DNA of 64,000 bases from Escherichia phage PNJ1809-36: sequence record MT944117.1. The stretch is one strand, 5' to 3'. Every line of letters begins with the position of its first letter. Position 1 is the stretch's first letter. A model generated the notes under the pieces. It was not told where the DNA came from. It searched no databases and worked only from the letters and a program-made list of their open reading frames with translations. Made by a program: the position numbers and the translations under genes. Positions 3,480-31,478 of this stretch are shown one piece after another.

Positions 3480-3836
3480 ATGAAAAAACTAATCTTAGCC
3501 ACATTGCTGGCTACCGTAAGCTTCACCACTTACGCTCAAAAATTTGTAGCAGTTAAAACGGATATTGGTAAAGATGTTGTGATCACAGGCAACAAATTTT
3601 ACTATACACCTGGGAATGGTGTTCTAGAAGAGTGCCAAGATGTTGAGGCATATACAGGAAAAGAAGATAACACGGAACGTCCTTTTTATTCGATTATAGC
3701 TACTTGCAAAAATGAAATAGTAGCTATTAAACAATACAAAGATGCCCCTGGAGGAGAGTACTTGTTAGTCAAGAATATTAAGAGTGAAAAAACTGCAAAG
3801 TTTACAGTAATTATTTTAAAAGGAGAAACGTTCTAA
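3480..3836 (+). CDS. secreted small protein with N-terminal signal peptide
   Basis: SD AGGAGGG + ATG 3480; MKKLILATLLATVSFTTYAQ signal-like N-terminus. Confidence 0.65.
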   Translation: MKKLILATLLATVSFTTYAQKFVAVKTDIGKDVVITGNKFYYTPGNGVLEECQDVEAYTGKEDNTERPFYSIIATCKNEIVAIKQYKDAPGGEYLLVKNIKSEKTAKFTVIILKGETF

Positions 3837-4975
3837 TGAAATACACTATTTTTGGAGATGTAGCTGTTGTAAATAAGGAATATGGCGTTGAAGCTAATAA
3901 ACTTCCTGCTGGAGTTTGGGTTGTCAACTGCGATCCGCACGGTAACTACTCTTTAGTGCGTGGCGAAAGTTTCTCTCTTCCGAACACTCTTTATGGGGAA
4001 ACTAAAGATCGCGCCGCACATGTTATTAAAACATTTGCTCGTCGTAGTAAAGAAGGTAAAAATACTGGGGTGTTACTGACAGGGACAAAAGGCAGTGGTA
4101 AGACGATGTTAGCTAAACTGATTAGCATGTCTCTAATGTCCACAGAAGGTTTAGGTATTCCAACCATTTTGGTTACACAGCCTTACACAGATGCTGGATT
4201 CTTAGAATTTATGAGTAAAATTACAGATCGTGCTGTTGTTTTATTTGACGAATTTGATAAAGTGTATGCTAAGAAAGAAGATCAGGAAGCACTGTTGACC
4301 TTGTTGGATGGAACAGGAAGTGGGAATAAACTTTACATCCTCACTAAAAATAGTGGTTATATCTCGGAATATTTTGTAAACCGTCCTAGTCGTATCTACT
4401 ACAGTTTCAATTACGATAAACTGTCTAGTGAAACTATGTTAGATTACTTGGATAAGAACTTGGTAAATAAAAAACACGTAGATAACTTCCAACGTTTATG
4501 GGATGTTAGCACAGAGTTGTCTTTCGATGTTATTCAAGGCATTGTAGAAGAATTGAATTTCTATCCAAAAATGACTTTTAAAGAATGTCTTGAAATGATG
4601 GGTATTTCTTTAGGCAATGATGCTAAATGGAATGTGGTTTCTATTGTAGCTAATGGCAAAACCTTGAAGGTGAATTGGATCAATAACTGGCACGACTTTA
4701 CCCCTACTAAGTTTTTGTCGGGTGCTTGTTCCTTGAACATCTATCTACAAAGCTTGAAAGATGATGAAGTGGAAGCAATGGAAACCAATAGTTATGTTAT
4801 CCTAGACGAAGATGGCGACCCACATATTGATCTATGTGCAACTGCTGATGGTCTAACTTGTGATCTGATTGAAGGTGGTAAGATCCTGGTGATGAGCACT
4901 ACACCAGGAAACACTCTGCGAGTGGTGCTGGAGCCTGTAACGCAGCGATCTACCACACTGGGTAGCGTATTCTGA
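3836..4975 (+). CDS. AAA+ family ATPase
   Basis: Walker A GTKGSGKT, Walker B VVLFDEFD, sensor ILTKN; 379 aa. Confidence 0.75.
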   Translation: MKYTIFGDVAVVNKEYGVEANKLPAGVWVVNCDPHGNYSLVRGESFSLPNTLYGETKDRAAHVIKTFARRSKEGKNTGVLLTGTKGSGKTMLAKLISMSLMSTEGLGIPTILVTQPYTDAGFLEFMSKITDRAVVLFDEFDKVYAKKEDQEALLTLLDGTGSGNKLYILTKNSGYISEYFVNRPSRIYYSFNYDKLSSETMLDYLDKNLVNKKHVDNFQRLWDVSTELSFDVIQGIVEELNFYPKMTFKECLEMMGISLGNDAKWNVVSIVANGKTLKVNWINNWHDFTPTKFLSGACSLNIYLQSLKDDEVEAMETNSYVILDEDGDPHIDLCATADGLTCDLIEGGKILVMSTTPGNTLRVVLEPVTQRSTTLGSVF

Positions 4976-5044: not shown

Positions 5045-6052
5045 TTGTTAGATATGCCAGTAAAGAAGAGTATTGAAACATATATGGAAGAATGTAAGCC
5101 GATAGCTGAGGCTAAAGGGATTACCATTCTCGGCACGTATGGAGAAGATAAAGGTGTGCATACGAAGATGATCAATCGTTGTGAGCATGGTCATGAATGG
5201 AATACTACAACGTTTCACAGTTTTAAAGATGGTCGAGGTTGTCCTAAGTGCGCCTACAGGGAACGTTCGAAAAAGAGAAGCAAAGCTATCACTATTCCAG
5301 ACCAGCAACACATACAAGATTTTATGAAGGTAGGTAAATTTAAGGAAGGCACTATTTTCACCAATACAGGAGAACGTAAAGGGTGTGATATAGTATGGAT
5401 GGTTGAATGTCCTGTTTGCTCTCATGATGAATATGTGGAAGCTGGGGTGTGTGATGGTAAATTCTATGCTACCGGAAGTCATCTTAAACGTGGGTGTCTC
5501 CCTTGCCGCTGTTCTACAAGTTACAAATACACAGAGGATCAGACCACCTATAGAACAAGAAAGGAAGTAGAAAGGAGAGGATATATATGGGTAGGATGGA
5601 TCGGTAAACCTTCAACAATGGGTAAGTTTAAATATGGATGTAAGGAGCACGGGGAACAGATAGGGCGTGCAGATGGTTTGCTACATAAGGGGAGTGGGTG
5701 TCCGCAGTGCGGGGGCCAAAACCAACAACAATGTTACATTAATCATATTTATGATGAAGATGGTATTCTTTGTGCACTGAAGTTTGGTATTGCCAATAGT
5801 AGTGATCGCCGTATCAAAGAACAGAATAGCCGCAATGTGTTTACTATGAGACAAGTTCAAGTGTGGCAGTTCCCCACTGTGAAGCAGTGCAAAAATTCAG
5901 AAAAGTATTGCAAAAAGGTGTTAGACACAGAAGCAGTGAGCAAATATGCTATGCCAGACGGCTACACAGAAACAGTGGAGCTATCTTGTCTGGCATCAAT
6001 ACAAAACATTTATAAACTTTATGGTGGAATATTACAGGAGGAAACATGTTAG
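5045..6052 (+). CDS. T5orf172/GIY-YIG-like domain protein with Cys-rich N-terminal repeats (homing-endonuclease-like)
   Basis: three GCPxC-type repeats; C-terminal KFGIANSSDRRIKEQNS resembles T5orf172 core; start may be TTG 5045 or ATG 5054. Confidence 0.55.
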   Translation: MLDMPVKKSIETYMEECKPIAEAKGITILGTYGEDKGVHTKMINRCEHGHEWNTTTFHSFKDGRGCPKCAYRERSKKRSKAITIPDQQHIQDFMKVGKFKEGTIFTNTGERKGCDIVWMVECPVCSHDEYVEAGVCDGKFYATGSHLKRGCLPCRCSTSYKYTEDQTTYRTRKEVERRGYIWVGWIGKPSTMGKFKYGCKEHGEQIGRADGLLHKGSGCPQCGGQNQQQCYINHIYDEDGILCALKFGIANSSDRRIKEQNSRNVFTMRQVQVWQFPTVKQCKNSEKYCKKVLDTEAVSKYAMPDGYTETVELSCLASIQNIYKLYGGILQEETC

Positions 6053-6424: not shown

Positions 6425-6613
6425 ATGGCACGTTTAGCAGATAACCCTGTATTCTACCCCGTTCTTGATCTTTATGATGAATTGACATATGTTGTGGAGC
6501 GGTATAATTACAATGAAGACCTCTTGGAGACAAACCTTAAAGTAGTTCTGATGAAAGCCTATCAGCAAGGGCAACGTGAAATTTTGGAGAGTATGAAAAA
6601 TGCGAATAACTGA
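6425..6613 (+). CDS. hypothetical protein (62 aa)
   Basis: ATG 6425 after SD AAAGGAG. Confidence 0.5.
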   Translation: MARLADNPVFYPVLDLYDELTYVVERYNYNEDLLETNLKVVLMKAYQQGQREILESMKNANN

Positions 6614-7142
6614 TGATTATGTATTCTTCTTTTCACATAAAGATGTTTTTAGTAATTGGTATATTGCACCCTTTACAGAAACCGAACCAAGTTACAATCA
6701 GACATTTAATTGTGTCGAACAATACATGATGTGGCGTAAAGCTTTGCTTTTTAATGATCACAACACTGCACAGGCTATTCTGACTCATAGCTTAAAACGA
6801 GAAGATGAGAAGATACAAGCTTATTACAAACGTATGGGTAGGGCAGTAGCAGGTTTCGATAACAAAATATGGGAAGAGAATCGTGAGCGTATTGTTATGC
6901 GAGGTTTATGCTTGAAGTATGTACAGAATCCAGACTTGTATGCCGATTTACGTCTATATCAATACAAAACATTTGTTGAAGCAAGTCCTTACGATAAGGT
7001 ATACGGAATTGGAATGGGGATGTATGAACCAGGGGTGCTAAACCCTGCCACCTGGAAAGGGCAGAATCTTTTAGGCAAATATCATAACAAACTGATCGAA
7101 ATACTTTTCCCAGACAAAATACCGCAAAGACGATATTTGTGA
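6600..7142 (+). CDS. NADAR-domain (YbiA/DUF1768-like) protein
   Basis: FSNWYIAPF, EQYMMWRKALLF, RMGRAV...W..NRE..VMRG...KY, YGIGMG...G.NLLGK blocks match the YbiA-family pattern. Confidence 0.75.
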   Translation: MRITDDYVFFFSHKDVFSNWYIAPFTETEPSYNQTFNCVEQYMMWRKALLFNDHNTAQAILTHSLKREDEKIQAYYKRMGRAVAGFDNKIWEENRERIVMRGLCLKYVQNPDLYADLRLYQYKTFVEASPYDKVYGIGMGMYEPGVLNPATWKGQNLLGKYHNKLIEILFPDKIPQRRYL

Positions 7143-7383
7143 TATTTTAACTTTTTTCATTTTTAGAACAAAGGTGTCACTTTGTAGCACAGAAATAAGG
7201 CTCCTACAGCACCGTAGAGAGCCTGTTATTTTGTCCTATACAAACCCTTATCTTTTTCAGTTTGCATCACTAGGATTCGATCTAAGTGGGTTCCTGAAGG
7301 TTTACCAATAAGATTAAAGGTTATCTCAAATTCCCACTACCTATTATCTCAAAAATCCCTCAAATTATTTAAACTTTTTAAGA

Positions 7384-7570
7384 ATTTACAAAAGTGAAAG
7401 TTGAAAACCAAAATTTAAAGTTTAGGAAAATTATCTTAAAATGTTAGATACAAAACAAAACTCAAAAGTCAAGGAAAATTTTAAAAATTTTGCGCGCCCA
7501 CAGTATTTAAAGTTTTTTTGCTTTTACAAAAATGAAAGTACAAAAGCAAAATTTAAAGTTTACAAAAATT
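7384..7570. repeat. two copies of a ~48-bp direct repeat (iteron-like)
   Basis: tttacaaaagtgaaagttgaaaaccaaaatttaaagtttaggaaaatt at ~7384 and a near-copy at ~7521. Confidence 0.7.
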
Positions 7571-7583
7571 TATGCAGATGGGA

Positions 7584-7698
7584 ATGAGAAGAGTTCTCAT
7601 ATGGAAATGCAAATGATAATGATTCGCATTTAGGTTTATAAATGAGATTGATTCTTATTTGATAAGGTAAATGATAATCATTCTCATTTAGAGAATGA
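7584..7698. promoter_or_regulatory. cluster of dyad-symmetric operator-like sites, Fur-box-like
   Basis: ATGAGAAgagTTCTCAT (7584-7600), AATGATAATGATTCGCATT (~7612), AATGATAATCATTCTCATT (~7669, 13-nt core identical to Fur box core AATGATAATCATT), CATTCTC-N5-GAGAATG (7679-7697). Confidence 0.4.
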
Positions 7699-7946
7699 CG
7701 CGCAGGGGCGGTGTTTGTCTCGCGCTCCCGTGTCCCCTCGCCATGTAATAAGAATAACAGATCCAGCCAGGAAAGCAAGCGATTATTTTATCTTTACATT
7801 TCTTTACAAATATATAGCGCCCAGCCTACCGGCGATCAACCTTCCAACCAGCGCCCTGGTATGTTAGCCCCGCCTTTACGCCGTGGGGTGGCGCTTCCTC
7901 TTCTGTATGTAAAACAGTATAAGCCCGATCCCTGGGCTTGTCAAGA

Positions 7947-8213
7947 TTATTTTTTGTTTTCTTGCCAGGAAAGGACACCTAACCAAAAATGCATATCGCC
8001 CCGCGCCCCTGGTGGGATCTTGCTTTCCCCGCCGCCACTGCAAGCCCATAAATAACCATCAGCAAACGGATCAAAATGGTCTATCTCTTCCACCTTATGA
8101 TCGCCCAGGTTGAGAACGGTTTCAACCTTTAAGCCCGTTGCGCTTGCTACCTGGTGCACCGTGCCGCCTTGCCAGCCCAATGAGTGCATAAGGTGTAATG
8201 TAGTATTTGTCAT
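7947..8213 (-). CDS. hypothetical protein (88 aa) inside a GC-rich island
   Basis: only clean ORF in 7700-8300; weak SD. Confidence 0.35.
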   Translation of the reverse strand: MTNTTLHLMHSLGWQGGTVHQVASATGLKVETVLNLGDHKVEEIDHFDPFADGYLWACSGGGESKIPPGARGDMHFWLGVLSWQENKK

Positions 8214-8322
8214 GGTGTCGCCCTTTCTTTGTTGTGCGCCCTGGTTGGCGCGGTAGAAAGATGATAGCCCTTTCTTTTATATATAGCAAGCAAAAAGAAA
8301 ATAAAAAAGATTGAAAAAGTGA

Positions 8323-8381
8323 TTGACGTTCGCCAGGTGGCGGCATAATATTTACCACGTAGGGCGGCAATGGTGCCGCTC
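8323..8381 (+). promoter_or_regulatory. early cassette promoter E1 with 5'-proximal stem-loop
   Basis: -35 TTGACG 8323-8328, -10 CATAAT/TAATAT ~8344-8351, stem-loop GGCGGCA-ATGG-TGCCGCT 8362-8379. Confidence 0.65.
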
Positions 8382-30748: not shown

Positions 30749-30777
30749 TTGACAAGTGTTTATTCGTTTTGTAAAGT
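30749..30777 (+). promoter_or_regulatory. sigma70-type promoter upstream of recombinase gene
   Basis: TTGACA 30749-30754, 17-nt spacer, TAAAGT 30772-30777. Confidence 0.55.
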
Positions 30778-30806
30778 GGGAATACAGCAATGGTTTAGGA
30801 GTGGTT

Positions 30807-31478
30807 ATGAAAAAGTTTGTTGTTTACAGTCGTCTTTCTAAACAGAAAAAAGGTGAGGCACAATATGGTATGGAGAGCCAAGAGAATGATATCCGTTACT
30901 TCTTAGACTCTGTGCCTGATGCGGAAGTTATTGGTCAATTTTCTGAATACTATTCGGGTAAGGGCGATTGGAAGCAACGTAAGGAACTGGTTAAAGCGGT
31001 TGAAATGTGTAAAGCTACCGGAGCAACTTTATTGGTAGCTAAAGTTGACCGCTTGGGTCGTAACAACGCCTCTGTAGCAACTCTTCTAGAGATGATCGAT
31101 GTTAAGATAGCCATCATGCCAGACGCAGATAAAATGGTTATACAGCTTCTGTCTGTTCTGGCTGAACAAGAAGTTAGAGGTATTGCTGATCGTATTAAAA
31201 AGGGTCTTGCTGTAGCAAAAAGCAAAGGTGTTTTATTAGGCAGTGCTAATCCTAAAACTGCCGCTGCACGTAGAAAAGGGAAAATGGAATACAACTCTGT
31301 TAAAGCAGACGCTTTTGCAGAGACATTCCGTGAACGCTTGGAGATCCTTAGAGATTTAAATACACCTTACAAAACTATTGCTGAAAAATTCAATAGTAAG
31401 AAAATAGCAACAGCACGTGGTGGTAAATGGGATGCTAAAACTGTTTCTCGTTTGTGTGCCAGACTGAACATTAAATAG
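30807..31478 (+). CDS. serine recombinase (resolvase/invertase family)
   Basis: VVYSRLSKQ (catalytic Ser region), LLVAKVDRLGRN, QLLSVLAEQEVRGIADRIKKGL match resolvase catalytic domain; C-terminal HTH-like tail; ATG 30807 after GGAGTGG. Confidence 0.8.
   Translation: MKKFVVYSRLSKQKKGEAQYGMESQENDIRYFLDSVPDAEVIGQFSEYYSGKGDWKQRKELVKAVEMCKATGATLLVAKVDRLGRNNASVATLLEMIDVKIAIMPDADKMVIQLLSVLAEQEVRGIADRIKKGLAVAKSKGVLLGSANPKTAAARRKGKMEYNSVKADAFAETFRERLEILRDLNTPYKTIAEKFNSKKIATARGGKWDAKTVSRLCARLNIK

Follow-up and report, generated by a model that had tools for sequence, protein, structure and literature searches.

Genomic context of a NADAR gene in a phAPEC8-like phage

What could a single NADAR-domain gene contribute to a lytic phage of Escherichia coli? 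The question is raised by an open reading frame at positions 6600-7142 of a 64,000-nucleotide stretch of Escherichia phage PNJ1809-36 (record MT944117.1; hereafter the window, meaning that whole stretch), for which the initial annotation had proposed either counter-defence against DarTG-like systems, through removal of ADP-ribose from guanine, or the processing of NAD metabolites. Between 5 and 9 kb, it shares 96.7% identity with Escherichia phage Mt1B1_P17 and ~90% with phAPEC8, and, judged by sequence, the window is that of a phAPEC8-like Phapecoctavirus of the subfamily Stephanstirmvirinae. The gene belongs to a plus-strand block, extending from ~0.9 to 37.6 kb, in which most ORFs are small, and its surroundings comprise the following features:

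3836-4975, plus strand: AAA ATPase (Pfam)
5045-6052, plus strand: CapR-homology/treble-clef zinc-finger 'endonuclease' (Pfam)
6586-6591, plus strand: Shine-Dalgarno-like GGAGAG, 8 nt 5' of the NADAR ATG (called from the sequence)
6600-7142, plus strand: NADAR-domain coding sequence, 180 aa, ATG start, stop codon included; candidate AdfN-type ADP-ribosyl-guanine glycohydrolase
7198-7233, plus strand: intrinsic-terminator-like hairpin, then UGUUAUUUU (a U-run in the transcript), 56 nt past the NADAR stop
30756-31478, plus strand: resolvase (Pfam)

The small ORF upstream has its stop codon at 6611-6613, so that the NADAR start overlaps this ORF by 14 nt, which suggests coupled translation of the two genes, and the MRITD N-terminus encoded from the NADAR start is kept in all orthologs, those of the sister genus included. 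Beyond the other end of the gene, the RNA hairpin at 7198-7233 folds with −20.8 kcal/mol (z −5.2), and terminators are annotated at the equivalent position in phAPEC8 and ASO2A; the NADAR gene is therefore the last of its transcription unit. Host-type promoters are annotated in the corresponding phAPEC8 block and, taken with the layout, make early expression of the gene plausible.

A Pfam scan of the near neighbours and of 20 further plus-strand ORFs of ≥125 aa between 1 and 37 kb returned only four matches (the AAA ATPase, the CapR/zinc-finger endonuclease-like protein, the NADAR protein and the resolvase), and the small ORFs near the NADAR gene carry no known domain. No ART or DarT domain was found in the neighbours scanned (~2.5-9.9 kb), and no macrodomain, Nudix, NAD-salvage, ART or riboflavin gene was found by Pfam in the near neighbours and the 20 further ORFs, or by PHROG and PADLOC in the near neighbours. 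The NADAR gene is thus an orphan among the scanned ORFs, and a multi-gene ADP-ribose module in this part of the genome is unsupported, since no partner ADP-ribose or NAD gene was found among them. Scans of the whole window for tRNA genes and Rfam families gave zero matches, so the NADAR gene has no RNA-repair context nearby.

Relatives of the protein are encoded in 718 phage records (tblastn), about 70 of which, at ≥80% identity, are phAPEC8-like phages; the phAPEC8 ortholog itself, G377_gp010, has 93.9% amino-acid identity and is listed as a hypothetical protein. Among the homologs, several go under the name 'ribA/ribD-fused uncharacterized protein', and four records (MT496970, PQ571307, OR352953 and OR525700) carry the label 'GTP cyclohydrolase II', which is wrong: in the window protein, Pfam at E ≤1 finds a NADAR domain only. 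The cyclohydrolase name is a carry-over from RibA-NADAR fusion proteins. Recent capture of the gene from the E. coli chromosome was also considered and set aside, as none of 5,426 complete E. coli genomes showed similarity to it at the DNA level.

The protein is a NADAR superfamily member under purifying selection

Profile, fold and active site all place the 180-aa protein in the NADAR superfamily. It matches Pfam PF08719 (NADAR) with an E-value of 4.2e-36 and 125.1 bits, against a gathering cut-off of 35.1 bits, over positions 3-154 of the 163 in the profile and from residue 11 of 180 onwards. A further match was to phrog_1017 (E 9.5e-51). Structurally, an AlphaFold2 model built from an alignment of 54 homologs had a mean pLDDT of 95.4 and a pTM of 0.89, and Foldseek returned only two significant matches in the PDB, the NADAR of Phytophthora nicotianae (PnNADAR, 8BAU; TM 0.78) and E. 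coli YbiA (2B3W; TM 0.69). The former was also the best solved-structure match by sequence (phmmer against the PDB, E 9.7e-15, ~28% identity), and YbiA was weak in the same search (E 0.44). The conserved NADAR/YbiA blocks noted in the initial annotation are thus confirmed by sequence, by a Pfam match over nearly the whole profile and by fold, with the catalytic residues intact. Among six Phapecoctavirus alleles, pairwise dN/dS (Nei-Gojobori) was 0.00-0.18 with dS up to 0.58, all catalytic residues were unchanged, and the amino-acid changes within the genus were concentrated in residues 51-90. Together, the reading frame, the profile matches, the fold and the dN/dS values indicate that this is a real gene under purifying selection and not a chance ORF.

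Two defence-related models were also scored, PADLOC reporting a strong match to PDC-M42C, a candidate defence system component (121 bits), and the NCBIfam anti-phage NADAR model DS32_2 reaching 14 bits against a cut-off of 240; neither score alters the functional reading of the protein.

The protein also matches the NCBIfam model TIGR02464, 'riboflavin biosynthesis intermediates N-glycosidase', with 113 bits against a cut-off of 73.7. This match, the 'ribA/ribD-fused' names of homologs and an argument from context by Iyer et al. 2022 all suggest a small-molecule enzyme, either a YbiA-like N-glycosidase of riboflavin intermediates or a hydrolase of ADP-ribose-derived signals or toxic metabolites produced by NAD-consuming defences. 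TIGR02464, however, is a domain-level model that also captures non-YbiA NADARs, and the resemblance to YbiA, a riboflavin-intermediate N-glycosidase, goes little beyond this shared match and the NADAR fold: the two proteins are 27% identical over 119 aa (E 2e-6), and YbiA is encoded, together with dinG and ybiB, in a chromosomal operon under LexA control and gave no in vivo protection against DarT1 (PMC11125620). A close relationship to YbiA was rejected on this distance, on the phmmer values given above and because no riboflavin domain occurs in the protein or the scanned neighbours; neither GTP cyclohydrolase nor riboflavin domains were detected by Pfam in the protein, its neighbours or the larger ORFs scanned. 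Moreover, the counterpart of the window protein in the sister genus (below) is classed among the non-YbiA bacterial NADARs, riboflavin damage control has no evident use to a lytic phage, and the prediction of Iyer et al. is older than the DNA ADP-ribosylation experiments. We therefore regard a small-molecule role as improbable, and the NAD-metabolite alternative offered in the initial annotation has less support than the counter-defence role.

Conservation of the active site

In PnNADAR, the residues that bind ADP-ribose or on which its removal from guanine depends are E43, K50, R93, E125, D130 and W133, the first two having E88 and K95 as counterparts in DarG1 of E. coli C7 (Schuller et al., Mol Cell 2023, PMC11543638). 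In the phmmer alignment to 8BAU, these align with E40, K47, R95, E127, D132 and Y135 of the window protein, in which Tyr135 replaces the Trp. The PnNADAR residues stand at 8BAU chain indices 45, 52, 95, 127, 132 and 135, a constant offset of +2, as a two-residue tag on the crystallised protein would give. The corresponding codons in the window are:

6717-6719, plus strand: Glu40 codon GAA (PnNADAR E43, C7 E88, T4 AdfN E36); distal-ribose contact, catalytic (PMC11543638, PMC11825919)
6738-6740, plus strand: Lys47 codon AAA (PnNADAR K50, C7 K95, T4 K43); phosphate coordination
6882-6884, plus strand: Arg95 codon (PnNADAR R93); ADP-ribose contact, from the 8BAU alignment and PMC11543638
6978-6995, plus strand: VEASPYD motif with Glu127 and Asp132 (PnNADAR E125 and D130); Tyr135 follows the motif

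Across the alignment of 54 homologs, E40, K47, V126, E127, S129, P130 and D132 are invariant, and Glu40 stays so when YbiA and T4 30.3 are added to the alignment. Lys47 lies seven residues past Glu40, in the E-x6-K spacing of all tested NADARs, and mutation of the equivalent pair in T4 AdfN (E36/K43) impairs counter-defence (PMC11825919). Within the superfamily, T4-type phage NADARs have His at the position of the E125-type Glu and the BC4488 subfamily has Asp, and in DarT1-associated NADARs a nearby Asp (D171 in C7) takes over the function of this Glu (PMC11543638); Glu127 thus sets the window protein apart from the T4-type and BC4488 NADARs.

The same invariance bears on whether the protein acts as an enzyme at all. 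It might instead block a toxin by binding, as an antitoxin mimic, or be a functionless relic, and Johannesman et al. do distinguish their enzymes from a further NADAR-type phage protein for which enzymatic activity is dispensable (PMC11825919). Catalytic and ligand-binding residues that are invariant across the clade and a dN/dS well below 1 argue against either possibility, and in two-hybrid assays neither DarG1 nor AdfN-T4 formed a stable association with DarT1 (PMC11825919). Both are, in our view, extremely unlikely.

An ortholog taken to be the anti-DarT1 factor AdfN-Bas60

Functionally, the most informative comparison is with the phage NADARs described by Johannesman, Awasthi, Carlson and LeRoux (Nat Commun 2025, PMC11825919). 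T4 gp30.3 (AdfN) strips ADP-ribose from DNA, and both T4 and T2 depend on AdfN for growth in hosts that carry DarTG1. In uninfected E. coli, DarT1 is neutralised by two unrelated phage NADARs, AdfN-Bas32 and AdfN-Bas60, each of which also lets RB69, T5 and Bas25 form plaques again on such hosts. All tested phage NADARs were without effect on the thymine-modifying DarTG2. AdfN-Bas60, which these authors class among the non-YbiA bacterial NADARs, was assayed by ectopic expression only and was not deleted from its own phage. Removal of ADP-ribose from DNA guanine has thus been shown for T4 gp30.3 and, by way of cell-based rescue, for AdfN-Bas60 and AdfN-Bas32; in vitro, hydrolysis of guanine-linked ADP-ribose (G-ADPr) on DNA has been seen with each of the four NADAR families assayed to date (PMC11125620, PMC12945103).

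Bas60-62 are phi92-like phages, PaulScherrer and EmilieFrey among them, with JohannJBalmer as the third BASEL record that has a NADAR gene; the phi92-like group is the genus Justusliebigvirus, the sister genus of Phapecoctavirus. Since tblastn finds a single NADAR match in the PaulScherrer record, bas60_0111 (QXV83846.1), we take this protein to be AdfN-Bas60. The window protein is 58% identical to it over 172 aa (E 1e-68), and the flanks are shared as well, with 64% identity for the AAA ATPase, 56% for the endonuclease-like protein and 95% for the downstream minus-strand 88-aa ORF. On this identity and these common flanks, the window gene is the positional ortholog of bas60_0111.

The two loci share their subfamily, Stephanstirmvirinae, and their layout, the NADAR gene lying in PaulScherrer and Bas61/Bas62, as in the window, between the ATPase and CapR-type endonuclease-like genes on one side and the minus-strand 88-aa ORF on the other. 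The proteins are of similar length (180 aa in the window, 183 aa in PaulScherrer) and have in common the N-terminus MRITD.YVFFFS and the E-x6-K and VEASPYD motifs. They differ in 42% of their residues, in the C-terminal tail and in a 6-residue insertion before the catalytic Glu that the window protein lacks, and in Phapecoctavirus the endonuclease-like gene is separated from the NADAR gene by two additional small ORFs, one of 121 aa and one of 62-74 aa according to the start chosen. By orthology and orphan status, the window protein would fall in the AdfN functional class, its activity being predicted.

Comparison with other NADAR types

Evolutionarily, the window protein is distinct from AdfN-T4 (gp30.3; the 'phage NADAR' of de Souza and Aravind and of Schuller et al.), which counters DarTG1 by removing ADP-ribose from DNA guanine. 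Both are orphan NADARs of virulent coliphages with the E-x6-K pair, whereas BLASTP finds no significant similarity between them (E 4.6) and the T4-type protein has His where the window protein has Glu127; a T4-type identity was rejected on these two grounds, and the two lineages were probably acquired independently. AdfN-T4 is, furthermore, fully active only in a T-even context, a need that AdfN-Bas60 does not have (PMC11825919).

With general stand-alone NADARs (PnNADAR, the E. coli sigma70-linked NADAR and SCO5665 of S. coelicolor), the window protein shares the ADP-ribose contacts, the E125-type Glu included, but these are cellular proteins with unknown or housekeeping roles and ours is encoded by a lytic phage. 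With DarG1, the antitoxin associated with DarT1, it would share the chemistry and the substrate, G-ADPr on DNA, both being predicted; it has the superfamily Glu in place of the DarG1-specific Asp. Identity with a DarG1 antitoxin was likewise rejected, as a DarT1 neighbour is absent and so is the N-terminal extension (DarG1 features: PMC11825919), the NADAR domain starting at residue 1-11.

Predicted role in infection

We posit that the gene probably encodes a stand-alone NADAR ADP-ribosylglycohydrolase of a virulent phAPEC8-like myovirus that acts as an AdfN-type anti-DarTG1 factor. During infection of DarTG1-carrying E. coli, DarT1 would move ADP-ribose from NAD+ to the guanine N2 of phage DNA and so block phage replication. 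The phage NADAR is expected to hold the ADP-ribose through Glu40, Lys47, Arg95, Asp132 and Tyr135 and to hydrolyse the N-glycosidic bond between ribose and guanine at the E40/K47/E127 site, with Glu40 and Glu127, such that free ADP-ribose would be released, the base restored and replication continued. The protein would, in other words, work like the DarG1 antitoxin without a partner toxin.

We infer that the 58%-identical window allele has the same activity as the ortholog, acts in natural infection and is produced early. Our confidence is discounted because the evidence for AdfN-Bas60 was obtained in trans only, because in vitro activity is not always protective (outside the right context, neither E. 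coli YbiA nor T4 gp30.3 saved cells from DarT1, despite their activity in vitro; PMC11125620) and because the amino-acid changes cluster in residues 51-90. Given that clustering and the 42% difference from AdfN-Bas60, specificity could differ between the two alleles. Literature searches found no experimental work on a Phapecoctavirus NADAR allele.

The counter-defence role suggested in the initial annotation accordingly holds for DarTG1, by way of the syntenic 58% ortholog that we take to be AdfN-Bas60, and does not extend to DarTG-like systems in general: as every phage NADAR tested failed against DarTG2, the expected target is the guanine-modifying DarTG1. Nor is the idea new, having already been published for the Stephanstirmvirinae clade; the principle that orphan phage NADARs reverse DarT1 appeared in 2024-2025, for a protein from a phage of the same subfamily, and our analysis therefore opens no new question.

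A broader target range has to be weighed against this assignment. The protein might erase ADP-ribose from nucleic-acid bases more generally, with other ART toxins as its main targets and DarTG1 reversal as one of several activities, or as a secondary one; those toxins could be pierisin/ScARP-like, YarT-like or still unknown defence ARTs that modify guanine or cytosine in RNA or DNA. The retained Glu127 (E125-type), a phmmer match far closer to PnNADAR (E 9.7e-15) than to YbiA (E 0.44) and the distance from gp30.3 (BLASTP E 4.6) are all consistent with this. Members of the general NADAR and YbiA families remove C-ADPr in addition to G-ADPr, from DNA and RNA, unlike the T4-type and DarG1 NADARs (PMC12945103), and G-ADPr on RNA is reversed by all tested NADARs (PMC11833690). 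Johannesman et al. themselves propose that factors of this kind may also counteract further defences based on ADP-ribosylation (PMC11825919). On the other hand, the literature examined contains no phage defence that ADP-ribosylates cytosine or RNA guanine, and anti-DarTG1 activity is the only phenotype shown for the ortholog (PMC11825919). We consider main targets other than DarTG1 unlikely, and this reading in any case overlaps with an anti-DarTG1 function instead of excluding it.

The anti-DarTG1 assignment gives a likely function to a gene that is mostly annotated as 'hypothetical protein' or wrongly as 'GTP cyclohydrolase II' and is kept in ~70 sequenced phAPEC8-like phages, several of which have been used or proposed for phage therapy. 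The assignment predicts that phAPEC8-like phages plate on DarTG1-carrying E. coli, and the window gene offers a second, diverged AdfN-Bas60 allele for comparisons of specificity.

Plasmid relatives and the downstream region

The nearest non-phage relatives of the protein, at 40-45% identity, are encoded on 94 plasmids, mostly of Burkholderia and Pseudomonas, 25 of which are typed as conjugative. One plasmid relative lies directly 3' of a gene for an LPD1 polyvalent protein, and others, on MOBH plasmids, adjoin a DNA-repair exonuclease gene; the plasmids with the Burkholderia copies are conjugative and of the MOBH type. A conserved ART partner was not found in the gene context of the bacterial relatives. 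This distribution is a hint that mobile elements in general use genes of this clade against defences. [quoted passage not shown] If it were true, the differences in residues 51-90 could reflect adaptation of an interface with substrates or inhibitors.

Downstream of the NADAR gene, a 660-bp block (7669-8330) is 92.7% identical in DNA to PaulScherrer, whereas the flanking genes reach just 68-72%; it houses the minus-strand 88-aa ORF. A search of this conserved, GC-rich block for structured RNA gave only one chance miRNA match in Rfam (E ≤1) and folding z-scores of ~0 on both strands, so that outside the 88-aa ORF no Rfam family or unusual folding energy accounts for the conservation. Between the terminator and this block lies a stretch of 25% GC with direct repeats of 72 nt and 29 nt (7361-7691).

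NADAR identity and plasmid relatives of the phage protein

Functionally, the product of window 6600-7142 has NADAR as its sole domain, and GTP cyclohydrolase II, the identity that several phage entries of GenBank and RefSeq (MT496970/NC_052662, PQ571307, OR352953, OR525700, and NC_073039) give to its orthologs or relatives, was therefore rejected for this protein; the label is a propagated misannotation. Against PADLOC-DB, the phage NADAR matched PDC-M42C (121 bits, E-value 1e-35), which PADLOC lists as part of a candidate anti-phage defence system. Judging from this sequence match, close bacterial relatives of the phage counter-defence NADAR may themselves sit within a candidate defence system, which is possibly an unrecognised ART-NADAR toxin-antitoxin pair.

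Relatives were also found on mobile elements, with 94 plasmids carrying NADARs of 40-45% identity to the phage protein (25 of the 94 being of conjugative type). Besides loci L006-L008, the plasmid NADAR loci include the following (coordinates on the plasmid records).

6980-7933, locus L020, P. syringae plasmid NZ_MK621013
7001-7486, locus L021, B. contaminans MOBH conjugative plasmid NZ_CP090639

One plasmid NADAR, of 317 aa, lies directly 3' of the gene for a 1052-aa LPD1 polyvalent protein, while others neighbour a Gp3-like protein and a DNA-repair exonuclease. Together, the identity of these plasmid proteins to the phage NADAR and the neighbours they keep suggest that the clade may serve plasmids, besides phages, against ADP-ribosylating defences.

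Among the NADAR alleles of Phapecoctavirus, amino-acid differences gather in residues 51-90 and the remainder of the protein is nearly invariant. These residues, which comprise helices 2-3 and a loop ~10 residues longer than that of YbiA, may form a specificity or interaction surface.

Genomic context of the NADAR gene

Upstream lies a gene annotated as an endonuclease.

5045-6052, "endonuclease", phrog_681, matching CapR-homology domains and carrying a treble-clef zinc finger

Among the related phages compared, this endonuclease-like gene always adjoins or is close to the NADAR gene, and its product ranges in size from 329 aa (VEcB) through 335 aa (the window) and 394 aa (phAPEC8) to 467 aa (PaulScherrer, a phage of the sister genus Justusliebigvirus), N-terminal repeat units having been gained or lost.

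Downstream of NADAR, the intergenic stretch at 7300-7700 is AT-rich (25% GC) and contains several repeats, including a 29-nt unit present in three copies as well as the following.

7361-7432 and 7499-7570, 72-nt direct repeat, two copies with 82% identity between them
7583-7691, three units with a 29-nt period
7639-7690, 22-nt inverted repeat

In the tuntematon record, "repeat_region" features are annotated under the matched 4-kb stretch. The intergenic stretch may serve as an origin or as an array of binding sites.

Further downstream is a conserved block that encloses a small ORF.

7669-8330, conserved block, ~660 bp
7947-8213, minus strand, 88-aa ORF, phrog_19316, 95% amino-acid identity

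The block shares 92.7% DNA identity with PaulScherrer, whereas its flanking genes share 68-72%, and its GC content is 47-55%, as compared to ~38% in the surrounding genome region. Besides the 88-aa ORF, ~390 bp of the block carry no annotated gene; an Rfam search of the block gave no match, and RNA folding returned z-scores of ~0 on either strand. Such extreme conservation could stem from a recent exchange, or the block could hold a regulatory element or specify an RNA.

At a larger scale, a long one-directional block spans this part of the window.

860-37600, plus strand, one-directional block of mostly small ORFs

A Pfam scan of ~30 of its ORFs (the near neighbours of NADAR plus 20 ORFs of at least 125 aa) returned matches for only four: an AAA ATPase, the CapR endonuclease-like protein, NADAR itself, and a resolvase. 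More anti-defence genes could lie within this large uncharacterised region.
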